Positions 49,388 to 51,868 of a DNA stretch of 64,000 nt are shown piece by piece. Source of the DNA: Candidatus Bathyarchaeota archaeon (GTDB lineage Archaea; Thermoproteota; Bathyarchaeia; Bathyarchaeales; Bathycorpusculaceae); the NCBI GenBank assembly GCA_963811105.1, contig CAWEPZ010000011.1:160001-224000 (forward strand). Reading direction: 5' to 3'. The notes below the pieces were generated by a model. It ran no database searches and was not told the DNA's origin. It worked only from the letters and a program-made list of their open reading frames with translations. Both the position numbers and the translations under genes were made by a program. How positions within the stretch are numbered: the stretch's first letter is position 1; every line of letters starts with the position of its first letter.

Positions 49388-50476
49388 CTACCTTGTAATC
49401 TTAGCCTGCCGCACCGTCTCTAAACAAGCCTTAGCCTCACCATTATTAGCAAAGTACAGCCTAACAGGTTCCAATATAGCTGCAAGCTCAATTGCCACCC
49501 CATTTTTTAAGTCCATAGGATGTAGCTTACCATTGCAATATGCAGTTTCGAGTTCTTGGAAGCTTTGGTATTCGATGTTTGCGCCGAATTTTGCAGGGCG
49601 TTCAATCTTGAAACAGGGCTTTTCACGGAATATGATGTATTTGCAGATGTCGAGCACTGGGTTGAATCTGACGATTCGCTCCGGACAGAAAGCTCTGCAC
49701 ATCTTCTGTTTAATTTCCTCCGGTGAATCATAGATGAAAATGCAGGTTTGAGGTTTGCTCTTTGACATTTTTGCTGAGGCAACTGCTTCTTTCTCTTGAC
49801 CCTCAGGAATAGGCCAAATTGCAGGCTTCTCTAACCCCTGCAGTAAATGGTGATGCGCGCAGACGGGTTTCCAGCAACCGATTTTTTCGCCTACCTCCCT
49901 CGCAACCATGTTTGCTTTGCGTTGGTCCATGCCCAACTGACAAATTTTGACTTTCATCTCAAAAATGTCAGCAACTTGCATTGGCGTGTAGAGGTAATCT
50001 GAAACGTAATGAGCTTCGCCTTCTTTTCTCCCCGCGATTTCGAGGGTTCTTGTAGTTCTGGCTAAAGTTAGGTTTTTGGAAATTATAACCGTTTTAGCCC
50101 AATAATCGATATCTTTGTAGAGCTCGTCTGAGTAAATGAATTCAACCTTGTCTTCAGGTACGCCTAGAGCAAGCCATGAATGTCGGAAAAGGTCAGCGGC
50201 TTTGCGTATGAGAGTTAAGTCGCCGCCTAGCTTGTTGTTCAACCATGCGTGCCACGTAGCTAAAAACGCTTTGAAATGCACGCCTGCCTCGGCGAAATCT
50301 TTCATTTTGTAAGCGCAGATAACGCCTGTTCCCAAATGTGCTAAACCAGATGGCTCCCAGCCGTTGTAGGCGATGGGATGGTCTTCCGCTTCAAAAAGTT
50401 GGCGTAGGTCATCGGGTGTGATAACTTCCTCAGTTGGCGGTCTGCAGATTAGCTCAATTTTCTTCTCTATGTCCAA
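49388..50476 (-). CDS. tyrS: Tyrosyl-tRNA synthetase (archaeal)
   Basis: YNGWEPSG..HLG, YTPMQVAD, GMDQRK, KMSKS, LHPMDLK. Confidence 0.96.
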   Translation of the reverse strand: MDIEKKIELICRPPTEEVITPDDLRQLFEAEDHPIAYNGWEPSGLAHLGTGVICAYKMKDFAEAGVHFKAFLATWHAWLNNKLGGDLTLIRKAADLFRHSWLALGVPEDKVEFIYSDELYKDIDYWAKTVIISKNLTLARTTRTLEIAGRKEGEAHYVSDYLYTPMQVADIFEMKVKICQLGMDQRKANMVAREVGEKIGCWKPVCAHHHLLQGLEKPAIWPIPEGQEKEAVASAKMSKSKPQTCIFIYDSPEEIKQKMCRAFCPERIVRFNPVLDICKYIIFREKPCFKIERPAKFGANIEYQSFQELETAYCNGKLHPMDLKNGVAIELAAILEPVRLYFANNGEAKACLETVRQAKITR

Positions 50477-50523
50477 GTGCTCTCATCTTCCTGTGCTTCC
50501 TAGCTTTAATGTGGTTGTTGAAC

Positions 50524-50805
50524 TTAAAAATCTAGTTTGAGTTTCTTGATTTCATAAGGCTTAGGTTTTAATTTTTTGGTCAAACGTATCATGTATTTTT
50601 TCTCATCTATTTTTTTTATACGACTGTCAATCAGCCCCTGTTTTACCGCTTCGGTTATGACCTGGTTGAAAGAAACGGGTTGAATGTTTGCGGTTTTCTT
50701 ATTGGTGATGATTATCCAGATTTCATGGTACTTGTTATTATTTTCTTTGAGAAACTGGGCAAGATCTGGGAGACTTTCTGGTTCAAAAGTTACTGGTTCA
50801 ACCAT
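50524..50805 (-). CDS. YdeI/OmpD-associated family N-terminal domain only
   Basis: FLKENN...EIWIII..K......VSF...ITEAVKQGLIDS..KKIDE...IRLT; lacks the usual C-terminal domain. Confidence 0.6.
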   Translation of the reverse strand: MVEPVTFEPESLPDLAQFLKENNNKYHEIWIIITNKKTANIQPVSFNQVITEAVKQGLIDSRIKKIDEKKYMIRLTKKLKPKPYEIKKLKLDF

Positions 50806-50825
50806 AATATTGCACTTACCTTTTT

Positions 50826-51040
50826 TGCGGGCTGTTGTCTCCCAAGTAACCTAACACTTGACCGCATAGCTGAGCGTTGCTTTTAGCTTGGCCAAGTTCT
50901 CTCGGCTTGGGATTTTATTTCGCCCGTGCCTCACCTGTTCCATAATTGGGTAGAACCCTATCGTCATAGGTGCAAGATTTGTGTTTCTTGCGTTCCCTCT
51001 GTTGAGTCCGTCGTTATGGGTGCTCGATTTTGGTGAGGCA
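50826..51040 (-). ncRNA. Candidate ~215-nt two-domain structured ncRNA or leader
   Basis: Many nested stems, including a perfect 9-bp TGCCTCACC/GGTGAGGCA, 7-bp TCCCAAG/CTTGGGA and 5-bp CGGGC/GCCCG. A TTTAAC box lies ~24 nt upstream on the minus strand. Confidence 0.55.
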
Positions 51041-51151
51041 ATAAAAATAGGTGTGGAGTGTTGGTTAAATGTTGCTGTATAATTACTTTCGTTCTTCGGA
51101 GATTCTAAGTTGAGATTTTGAAACAAAAAAAGGAATGGGTTGTTTATTGGG

Positions 51152-51868
51152 TTATTTGAAGAATTTCCAAACTATAGCTGCTATGATTCCGCCGATTATT
51201 GGTGCAACCCAAAAGACCCAAAGTTGACTCAGCGCTGTTCCTTGTACGAAGAGTGCTGGTCCTAGGCTTCTCGCAGGGTTGACTGATGTGCCGTCGATAG
51301 GTATTGCTACAAGGTGAACTAGTACGATGGTTAAGCCGATCGCTATTCCAGCGAATCCTTTAGGTACCCTTTCATGAGTTGAACCGTGAACGACAAGTAC
51401 GAATATGAAGGTCAAAACGATTTCAGCTATAAGCACAGATATTAAAGAATAACTGCTGTAACTGTTTGCGCCTAATCCAATGGCAGATAAGCTATAATTT
51501 GAGTTCCCACTTACTATTGCGTAAAGTATGCCTGCACCTATTACTGCACCGAGACACTGGAAAACAATGTAGAAAACGGTGTCCTTAACACTTATTTTTC
51601 CTGCGATAAGCATTGAGATTGAAACCGCGGGATTTATGTGACATCCGGAGACGCTGCCTATGGCGTAAACCATTGCTAGCACTGCAAGACCGAAAGCAAA
51701 AGCAATCCCAATATATTGACCTGCAATAACTGCGCTTCCGCAACCCATTAGCACTAGAACCATGGTACCAATCAGTTCGGCTGCATATTTTTTAATCGAC
51801 ATGATTTGAGGTGTGGCTGGAGGAGGTTGTGCTACTTCTGTAAGCTTCTTTTCTACTTCTTCACTCAT
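51152..51868 (-). CDS. aqpZ: Aquaporin (MIP family)
   Basis: SGCHINPAV and GTSVNPARS. Confidence 0.95.
   Translation of the reverse strand: MSEEVEKKLTEVAQPPPATPQIMSIKKYAAELIGTMVLVLMGCGSAVIAGQYIGIAFAFGLAVLAMVYAIGSVSGCHINPAVSISMLIAGKISVKDTVFYIVFQCLGAVIGAGILYAIVSGNSNYSLSAIGLGANSYSSYSLISVLIAEIVLTFIFVLVVHGSTHERVPKGFAGIAIGLTIVLVHLVAIPIDGTSVNPARSLGPALFVQGTALSQLWVFWVAPIIGGIIAAIVWKFFK

Follow-up and report, generated by a model that had tools for sequence, protein, structure and literature searches.

What is encoded between a MIP-family channel gene and tyrS in the genome of a bathyarchaeon? The window analysed is a stretch of 64,000 nucleotides (nt) of Candidatus Bathyarchaeota archaeon (assembly GCA_963811105.1, contig CAWEPZ010000011.1, forward-strand positions 160,001 to 224,000), and coordinates refer to this stretch unless a contig or an rRNA is named. 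A preliminary description of this DNA had noticed a two-domain structured RNA at 50826-51040, and all the helices that it named there are found in the sequence. The structured RNA lies at 50828-51039 on the minus strand and is single-copy in the genome. It most likely represents a stable RNA gene of roughly 212 nt, running from about 51039 to about 50826, whose two halves are most likely box H/ACA guide hairpins fused head to tail. On sequence grounds, we put the probability that this is the RNA of an H/ACA ribonucleoprotein (RNP) at roughly 0.8; we also lean, with less assurance, towards the view that it guides pseudouridylation in two regions of the 23S rRNA, helix 69 and the peptidyl-transferase loop.

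The strand can be read from the structure itself. The minus-strand RNA folds better than its shuffled versions (z -3.5, none of 100 shuffles as good), and the plus strand shows no clear excess in the same comparison (z -1.3, 9 of 100 as good). It had been thought that some G:U pairs favour the plus strand; they actually favour the minus strand. In an alignment of 130 distinct homologues, on which the structure was drawn by hand (alignment A2), pair 148-212 is GU in 68 sequences and GC in 60, and minus-strand G:U pairs are also found at 149-211 in 114 sequences, at 287-334 in 98 and at 292-328 in 60. The many pairs of this kind identify the minus strand as the one that encodes the RNA, which is also the orientation of the flanking genes.

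The element is conserved far beyond its own species. A BLAST search of the genus with the 346-nt intergenic query gives matches in 34 of 36 genomes at 70-92 % identity, limited to query positions from about 100 to 331, which correspond to the element itself; a few genomes from other families of the order also match, and in its own genome the query matches one place only. A covariance model built on hairpin 2, the 3' half (model R1), detects a single copy in 130 of the 151 genomes sampled from the class; among the 95 of high quality, 85 have it. Outside the class, in a sample of the phylum, R1 matches families f44 (14/15), f45 (8/8), f40 (1/1), f56 (2/3) and f60 (2/2); other families in this sample are without a match, for example f38 (0/19), f42 (0/13) and f47 (0/13). 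The pattern of invariant bases occurs in at least 120 stretches of the genome collection. Among the pattern matches listed, nearly all records are titled as metagenome-assembled genomes (MAGs) of Bathyarchaeia or Bathyarchaeota, four are titled as acidobacterial MAGs, and two carry a phylum-level title only (Nitrososphaerota archaeon, Thermoproteota archaeon).

It is base pairing that is maintained among these homologues. In A2, 85.9 % of the cells are paired and changes on both sides of a pair occur in 29 of the 48 pairs. The doubly changed cells number 451, compared to 135 +/- 20 in shuffled alignments, and none of 500 shuffles reaches the observed value; sliding the partner by one to three columns leaves at most 95. 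These comparisons support conserved pairing at this locus. Two elements drawn earlier within domain 1, the CCTAT/ATAGG hairpin and the GAAC/GTTC helix, are not kept in relatives. The conserved helix of this domain is GGACUC/GGGUUC (51004-51009 with 50953-50958), with a kink turn (K-turn) above it.

Both halves of the RNA follow a common plan: a closing stem, a variable 5' linker, a lower stem, an internal loop whose strands hold invariant bases, an upper stem and an apical part. On the returning strand, the lower stem is followed by one base, an invariant ACA and then the 3' strand of the closing stem. The parts of hairpin 1, the 5' half, are given here in RNA order:

51032-51039, minus strand: 5' strand GCCUCACC of P1, the outer closing stem, pairing with 50928-50935
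51020-51031, minus strand: linker from P1 to the lower stem, differing in length and sequence among clades
51014-51019, minus strand: 5' strand CCAUAA of P2, the lower stem, pairing with 50940-50945
51010-51013, minus strand: 5' strand CGAC of internal loop 1, its GAC invariant in 130/130 sequences
51004-51009, minus strand: 5' strand GGACUC of P2b, the upper stem, pairing with 50953-50958
50964-50999, minus strand: K-turn of hairpin 1 with an apical hairpin at 50972-50991
50953-50958, minus strand: 3' strand GGGUUC of P2b, partner of 51004-51009
50946-50952, minus strand: 3' strand UACCCAA of internal loop 1, the proposed 3' guide; ACCCA is kept in all homologues, other classes included
50940-50945, minus strand: 3' strand UUAUGG of P2, partner of 51014-51019
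50936-50938, minus strand: ACA box 1, separated by one base from the lower stem and by 14 nt from the loop 1 top
50928-50935, minus strand: 3' strand GGUGAGGC of P1, also the hinge that joins both hairpins

The stems of hairpin 1 are supported by compensatory changes. In P1 these have arisen independently within the genus (e.g., GCCUUGCC/GGCAAGGC and GCCUCUCC/GGGGAGGC), and in A2 its pair 102-240 is UA in 56 sequences and CG in 54. Five of the six P2 pairs (helix 3) change on both sides, and the P2b pairs (helix 4) vary among C-G, U-A and U-G. ACA box 1 is invariant in 130/130 sequences and the stretch between loop and ACA is gap-free in every one of them, so that the spacing is 14 nt throughout.

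Above P2b, hairpin 1 carries a canonical K-turn, even though the preliminary description had seen none. On the 5' side, the non-bulged strand provides a GA (50998-50999), and a C-stem is formed by GG (50996-50997) with CC (50969-50970); the 3' side consists of a UAU bulge (50966-50968) and the GA of the bulged strand (50964-50965). The U-G-A of this motif is invariant in 130/130 sequences and the two C-stem pairs covary (GC in 80 and AU in 28 for one; GC in 79, GU in 20 and AU in 4 for the other). The UAU bulge conforms to the published observation that a K-turn bulge ends in U (PMC7075261; this paper, PMC7991803 and PMC11077068 are cited from excerpts throughout). The distal G:A pair is situated 10-11 bases above the base of the upper stem, where PMC7075261 gives a general height of 9-10, with 8 and 10 in the case of stem-loop 1 (SL1) of the Haloferax volcanii RNA sR-h45. 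The proposal that domain 2 resembles an H/ACA RNA is supported but incomplete, since domain 1 likewise has the features of an H/ACA hairpin: a K-turn, an invariant ACA, the 14-nt spacing and a target region of its own.

Hairpin 2, the 3' half, comprises the following parts:

50922-50926, minus strand: 5' strand CGGGC of P5, the outer closing stem, pairing with 50828-50832
50906-50912, minus strand: 5' strand UCCCAAG of P6, the lower stem, pairing with 50840-50846
50898-50905, minus strand: 5' strand CCGAGAGA of internal loop 2, the proposed 5' guide; AGAGA is invariant and GAGAGA is kept in other classes
50890-50897, minus strand: 5' strand ACUUGGCC of P7, the upper stem, pairing with 50856-50863
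50864-50889, minus strand: apical part, a degenerate K-turn with a GCU/AGC stem and a UAU bulge
50856-50863, minus strand: 3' strand GGUCAAGU of P7, partner of 50890-50897
50847-50855, minus strand: 3' strand GUUAGGUUA of internal loop 2, the proposed 3' guide, of which other classes keep only the initial five bases, GUUAG
50840-50846, minus strand: 3' strand CUUGGGA of P6, partner of 50906-50912
50836-50838, minus strand: ACA box 2, separated by one base from the lower stem and by 17 nt from the loop 2 top
50828-50832, minus strand: 3' strand GCCCG of P5, partner of 50922-50926 and approximate 3' end of the RNA

P5 measures 4-9 bp in 129 sequences and its extension pairs covary (ACGGGC/GCCCGU, GCGGGC/GCCCGC, CGCGGGUG/CACCCGCG). 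Pairing is kept in 94.6 % of the cells of P6, three pairs of which change on both sides (helix 9 of A2), and in 93.4 % of those of P7, where four pairs do so (helix 10). The ACA that had been reported to follow the TCCCAAG stem is indeed present one base after the lower stem; its A and C are invariant in 129/129 sequences and the last A is found in at least 90 %, the remainder being alignment shifts.

Hairpin 2 has no CGGGC/GCCCG closing stem in a small subgroup (L059, L104, L148, L150). For L059, an alternative pairing is possible between the 3' tail CUUGCUCU and AGAGCAAG in the linker of hairpin 1.

Homologues in other families help to place the RNA. Family f44 has each half as a hairpin-ACA unit of its own, with 66-96 nt between the two. 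A unit comprises lower stem, loop and upper stem together with a K-turn in which GA faces GA and the three-base bulge has U as its last base; its ACA follows the lower stem after one base, at a distance of 14 nt from the loop top. The spacer is AT-rich with a TTAAATA-like box ahead of the second unit; in L208, a member of f44, the hairpin 1 unit ends with ACA-AUA followed by a U run. The second units fold with z values of -5.2 and -7.7. Copies of the f45 type have an AUA box with a 16-nt spacing, and family f17, inside the class, has a canonical K-turn in hairpin 2. The hairpin 2 K-turn is also canonical in L208 and L190 (GA opposite GA, three-base bulge ending in U), and the spacing of hairpin 2 is 14-16 nt in f44, f45 and f17. 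Because these homologues combine canonical K-turns with a 14-16 nt spacing, the family as a whole appears, by sequence, to consist of archaeal box H/ACA RNAs as PMC7991803 and PMC11077068 define them. The copy in the window's genus is a derived form, with fused hairpins, a weakened hairpin 2 K-turn and four extra bases in the 3' loop strand of hairpin 2. Across classes, conservation in the loop of hairpin 2 is limited to GAGAGA and GUUAG, the bases predicted to pair with helix 69.

Which uridines could such an RNA address? Targets were sought in the 23S and 16S rRNA of this genome, 4521 nt in total. Helix 69 reads GGGAGUAACUCUGACUCUCUCAAGG here, starting at 23S position 2018; the helix 69 sequence given earlier for TACK archaea, ending in UCUU, does not apply to this genome, in which the 23S reads UAACUCUGAC-U-C-UCUC-AAGG. 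Comparison of the pocket of hairpin 2 with this sequence does reveal complementarity, and it can be drawn in two registers. In the first, GUUAG pairs with CUGAC (2028-2032) and GAGA with UCUC, leaving U2033-C unpaired between 6 and 4 bp; no other rRNA site reaches 5 bp plus 4 bp in the canonical register. In the second, GUUA pairs with UAAC (2023-2026) and GAGAG with CUCUC, leaving UCUGA unpaired. The 5' loop strand GAGAGA is thus complementary to the UCUC/CUCUC run of helix 69. The second register resembles the unpaired UNUN arrangement by which stem-loop 2 (SL2) of sR-h45 makes two helix 69 pseudouridines (PMC7075261). The core of the earlier idea, that domain 2 is an H/ACA guide for helix 69, fits the relatives, the conservation of the loop and the match to the organism's own 23S; a single target uridine is not picked out. 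Candidates are the uridine equivalent to yeast 2264 or, as in Haloferax, those equivalent to E. coli 1915/1917.

For hairpin 1, ACCCA is complementary to UGGGU at 23S U2694-U2698, next to a UUU run that occupies 2698-2700 in GCUGGGUUUAGACCGUCG. The 3' guide forms 5 bp before the UUU run here and 6 bp in f44, where pairing of the strand AACCCAC with UGGGUU keeps the third U and the next A free. Under a 6-bp rule, the f44 guide AACCCAC finds only two sites in the 4521 nt of rRNA, one of which is the third U of GGGUUUAG. This rRNA site appeared only with the loop redrawn from relatives; the initial drawing of the pocket gave none. For H. volcanii it is reported that two A's on the 3' side of the SL1 pocket pair with the first and second of three consecutive U's, the third being converted to pseudouridine 2605 (PMC7075261). 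Helix 69 and the UUU region are identical or nearly so among the genomes compared. We take the predicted 23S sites to be the equivalents of E. coli 1915, 1917, 1921 and 2585/2586.

The 9-bp perfect match of UUAGGUUAC to the 23S around position 1765 is put down to chance because in G001 and G012 both partners have changed at non-paired positions. In a genome-wide scan for bipartite targets the top matches are scattered, and none lies within the listed known stable RNAs.

A mechanism can be proposed on this basis. Each hairpin would bind one Cbf5-Nop10-Gar1 set, with Cbf5 holding the lower stem and the N-ACA, while L7Ae would sit on the K-turn. Pairing of each internal loop with 23S rRNA would leave a uridine unpaired, to be converted to pseudouridine. 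Hairpin 1 would place ACCCA on UGGGU of the peptidyl-transferase loop and present the second or third U (2699/2700) in the pocket, while hairpin 2 would place GUUAG and GAGAGA on the helix 69 loop, exposing U2033, or U2027 and U2029. Both the protein binding and the modifications themselves are predictions from the RNA sequence. Partner genes exist in this genome for Cbf5 (TruB_N, 78.8 bits), Nop10 (80.7 bits) and Gar1 (35.8 bits).

The element is also found in contigs from four metatranscriptome runs of four studies, spanning about 50826 to 51030. Several of these contigs bridge both hairpins (e.g., 50835-50987 and 50830-50946). In two studies the inserts end against sequencing adapters at 51028-51030, and the contig of a third study ends at 51029; a read-1 primer tail abuts 50863 and 50898. 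The orientation of the adapters is always that expected for minus-strand RNA in a dUTP-type library, in which read 1 is antisense. The difference in depth between the two hairpins in run X3 (thousands versus about 100) is not usable because contig depth pools strains. Positions 50400-50807 and 51046-51147 are uncovered by RNA-library contigs; since these contigs stem from relatives with differing flanks, the uncovered flanks are uninformative on read-through into the downstream open reading frame (ORF) or tyrS.

The ends at 51028-51030 lie nine to ten bases inside the predicted 5' end, and the 5' strand of P1 (51032-51039) is in no listed contig, which could be due to the library preparation or to processing of the RNA. 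Second-strand priming losses in such libraries would be expected to leave an end about nine bases short of the start.

A number of observations weigh against an H/ACA guide and are gathered here. RNA-library contigs cannot prove transcription, strand or abundance. In this genome the K-turn of hairpin 2 has a single G.A pair, with a C in place of the expected A. The 17-nt spacing between pocket and ACA, correctly noted in the preliminary description, falls outside 15 +/- 1, for which it can be said that activity has been reported at spacings up to 17 (PMC7075261). Both ACA boxes are followed by the 3' strand of a closing stem and do not lie 3 nt from a free 3' end; the rule that the ACA is near such an end is not applicable to internal hairpins of multi-hairpin RNAs. 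None of the H/ACA families of Rfam matches. More generally, the suggested Rfam check leaves the element unannotated: with Rfam 15, the whole element has no overlapping family at the gathering score or at E up to 10, and homologues from other families have no match at E up to 1. To our knowledge, H/ACA guide RNAs are hard to find by sequence.

Target recognition raises its own difficulties. The helix 69 match alone is not significant, as 62 of 300 shuffled rRNAs equal the best site. G001 and G012 have GUUUGG for GUUAGG with helix 69 unchanged, which weakens the 3'-guide duplex, and a hand count on the alignment finds this change in about ten of 130 sequences. In hairpin 1, a U and not an A stands opposite the second U of the UUU run, and its exact target is ambiguous for this reason. 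The 5' guide of hairpin 1 is not in the canonical register. CGACGGAC, made up of the 5' strand CGAC of internal loop 1 and the next four bases, does match 23S 2702-2709 GACCGUCG at 7 of 8 positions, beginning two bases past the third U of the run; this pairing would need the lower half of the upper stem to be opened, a non-canonical geometry.

Further candidates were set aside. Weak Rfam matches nearby (SNORD59, DdR4, SNORD47, snR91) have E values of 0.45 or worse and were taken as noise. RNase P RNA and SRP RNA are ruled out because both are located elsewhere in the genome and their models do not match here.

The neighbourhood of the RNA gene is organised as follows:

51152-51868, minus strand: MIP-family channel gene (Pfam MIP, E 2.6e-51)
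51064-51069, minus strand: TTTAAC box, a putative TATA element 24 nt upstream of the first P1 base
50524-50805, minus strand: ORF of 93 amino acids (aa) between the RNA gene and tyrS, with no Pfam family at or above its cut-off
49388-50476, minus strand: tyrS, tyrosyl-tRNA synthetase (TyrRS; Pfam tRNA-synt_1b, E 7.8e-34), the ancestral downstream neighbour

The TTTAAC noticed earlier 24 nt ahead of the first G is borne out, and a TTTAA-type box is found at equal distance in those relatives of A2 that are without an extra 5' hairpin; it probably acts as a promoter element of the RNA gene. This extra short hairpin, GGCGAUGA(N6-9)[UC]GAGCC, lies directly 5' of hairpin 1 in many lineages, another class included (L055, L056, L065, L107 and others; L206, L207, L209, L215). 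It resembles a K-turn or K-loop, with a box C-like GAUGA opposite GA, and is absent from the window's genus.

The 93-aa ORF belongs to a small protein family (cluster c1) with 16 members in 14 genomes, whose genes recur beside the RNA gene in relatives, either after it in the same orientation or before it in the opposite one. The 23S rRNA gene of G000 lies at contig C11 226464-229489 (minus), only about 2.5 kb past the end of the window, and the 16S rRNA gene at contig C2 605162-606656 (plus), apparently unlinked to the 23S in the assembly.

How closely is the RNA tied to tyrS? In an order-level set of 134 copies, 22 have too little flank and 112 are evaluable. In 77 of the latter tyrS lies downstream on the same strand; 34 have no tyrS within a downstream flank of at least 700 nt, and one has tyrS upstream and divergent. 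In other classes, tyrS is downstream in 8 of 10 loci, which places the origin of the linkage before these classes diverged. Five of the eight loci have a gap of just 11-19 nt between the last position matched by the model and the beginning of the TyrRS alignment, and L214 and L209 have a Shine-Dalgarno-like AGGUGAU or AAGGUG directly after the closing stem, from which tyrS is probably co-transcribed with hairpin 2 there, as it probably is in many lineages. Conversely, the RNA is unchanged where the linkage with tyrS has been lost, which argues that it is independent of tyrS.

Truncated second copies of the RNA gene occur in L084 (1477-1732, minus; with L085), L117 (2250-2505, plus), L062 (250-505, minus) and L146 (131-387, plus). 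They consist of the 3' two-thirds of the gene (about 140 nt), beginning at GGGUUUACCCAA, and lie on the contig of a full copy, 0.9-5 kb away from it. The truncated copy of L084 is on the tyrS side and a 325-aa ORF between the copies has a weak Phage_integrase match under the Pfam cut-off (E 0.0016, 18.7 bits). This suggests that mobile elements integrate into the RNA gene, as they do into tRNA genes, with duplication of the attachment site; such integration would explain the broken synteny.

The tyrS linkage allows for a double role, in which hairpin 2 (in this class the whole RNA) is also a conserved 5' leader of tyrS that couples assembly or processing of the H/ACA RNP to TyrRS synthesis. 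We consider this addition unlikely, if worth keeping in view. If true, the arrangement would date back to before the classes of the phylum split, and the closing stems that enclose the ACA boxes would mark the point at which the RNP is released from the mRNA.

A second possibility retains the proteins and gives up the guide: the RNA may be part of an H/ACA-like or L7Ae-bound RNP without guiding, as a pre-rRNA chaperone or processing factor or as a substrate-less Cbf5-bound RNA. ACA and K-turn, the hallmarks relied upon above, predict protein binding and not catalysis; the loop of hairpin 1 is small (4 by 7 nt) and its 5' strand is unpaired in the canonical register; and S. islandicus sR666 is a precedent for a Cbf5- and L7Ae-binding hairpin of unknown function (PMC11077068). 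However, the 3'-guide strands lie in canonical register on uridines that are modified by the Haloferax double-hairpin guide, and the spacing rules linked to catalysis are kept in most lineages. Moreover, a lone 3' guide suffices in S. islandicus sR148 (PMC11077068) and in vitro in H. volcanii (PMC7075261). A non-guiding RNP is thus quite unlikely.

The third possibility, a purely cis-acting 5' leader of the tyrS mRNA that controls TyrRS synthesis as a riboswitch, as a tRNA or synthetase mimic or as a protein-binding operator, had already been raised in more general form as a novel cis-regulatory leader. The position of tyrS directly downstream in most lineages, with the short gaps and Shine-Dalgarno-like motifs described above, still speaks for it, yet it is not the best reading. 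The 34 copies without downstream tyrS retain all invariant positions, the next gene is convergent in G004, G016, G036, G008 and G019, and in this genome the 93-aa ORF separates the RNA from tyrS. The UAC of GGUUAC varies, with GGUAAC and GGUCAC as other forms; in one of these cases (G051) tyrS is still the neighbour. The organism's own tRNA-Tyr (contig C9 290613-290766) fits neither loop, and ACA boxes, K-turns and rRNA complementarity would be left unexplained. A leader role on its own is accordingly very unlikely. Its T-box-like version was rejected because the UAC varies to AAC or CAC, which argues against a specifier, because 34 of 112 copies are without tyrS and because the apical loops are unconserved.

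Two further candidates involving tRNA-Tyr were likewise rejected. The element is not an intron-containing tRNA-Tyr gene, since the true candidate sits at contig C9 290613-290766, and a guide for U35 of tRNA-Tyr, like S. islandicus sR115, is disfavoured by inspection by eye, as neither loop fits the anticodon arm. An ARAGORN run on the genome called no tRNA-Tyr. The sequence at C9 290613-290766 (plus) is the only tRNA-Tyr candidate; it is 154 nt long with C1-G72, A73, an encoded CCA and a CUGUAGA anticodon loop, seemingly with two introns flanking an 8-nt anticodon exon, and ARAGORN annotates it as a one-intron tRNA-Ser(cga). At contig C11 714956-715061 (minus), the standard ARAGORN run misses a tRNA of 106 nt with anticodon CAU (Rfam tRNA model, 53.8 bits), which has an apparent insertion after the anticodon arm.

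Finally, there is next to no chance that the overlapping minus-strand ORF at 50851-51126 (TTG start) encodes a 91-aa protein and that the structure is incidental: open as it is in this genome, it has no Pfam match, homologues carry 1- and 2-base indels within its range, substitutions track base pairing and not codons, and the conserved block stops at the stems and not at the ends of the ORF.

An H/ACA RNP RNA of two fused hairpins is therefore the explanation we retain. The RNA family is a likely guide for the most conserved large-subunit pseudouridines in the large and uncultured Bathyarchaeia. It suggests that a two-hairpin guide for helix 69 and the peptidyl-transferase loop is old and widespread in archaea and not a haloarchaeal peculiarity. 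The covariance model can now be used for annotation. No H/ACA RNA of Bathyarchaeia or Nitrosopumilus was found in the literature searched, which left most subscription journals outside.

Among known RNAs, the closest is H. volcanii sR-h45, compared here by its published description (PMC7075261). It is also about 200 nt long and composed of two stem-loops. Its 5' stem-loop addresses the third U of a UUU run in the 23S (pseudouridine 2605), as predicted for hairpin 1, and its 3' stem-loop the helix 69 loop (pseudouridines 1940 and 1942), as predicted for hairpin 2; by complementarity, the two target regions are thus the same and in the same 5'-to-3' order. Both RNAs have an ANA box one unpaired base after the first stem-loop and K-turns with tandem G:A pairs, in this genome by sequence in hairpin 1. 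In sR-h45, and by prediction here, the 3' side of the pocket matters more for pairing; the helix 69 hairpin is the atypical one in both. They differ in that a 56-base spacer separates the stem-loops of sR-h45, whereas here the strand of a closing stem plus one base joins the hairpins. An outer stem encloses each hairpin here, with the ACA inside an internal loop, and the passages on sR-h45 mention none. In addition, a U and not an A lies opposite the second U, and the K-turn of hairpin 2 is degenerate in this genus. The closing stems that enclose the ACA boxes, the fusion of the hairpins and the old synteny with tyrS are new features.

Single-hairpin archaeal H/ACA sRNAs (PMC7991803; sR115 and sR435, PMC11077068) have the same lower stem, pocket and K-turned upper stem, and their ACA box lies about 15 nt from the target position, compared to 14 and 17 nt from the loop tops here. 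They end about 3 nt past the ACA, where a closing stem follows here, and there is no sequence match; the f44 homologues resemble two such sRNAs in tandem. S. islandicus sR148 is an atypical H/ACA RNA that, like hairpin 2 in our prediction, serves helix 69 uridines of the 23S, the equivalents of E. coli 1917 and yeast 2266, and it does so mainly through a short 3' guide that forms a duplex of 6 bp at one site (PMC11077068).

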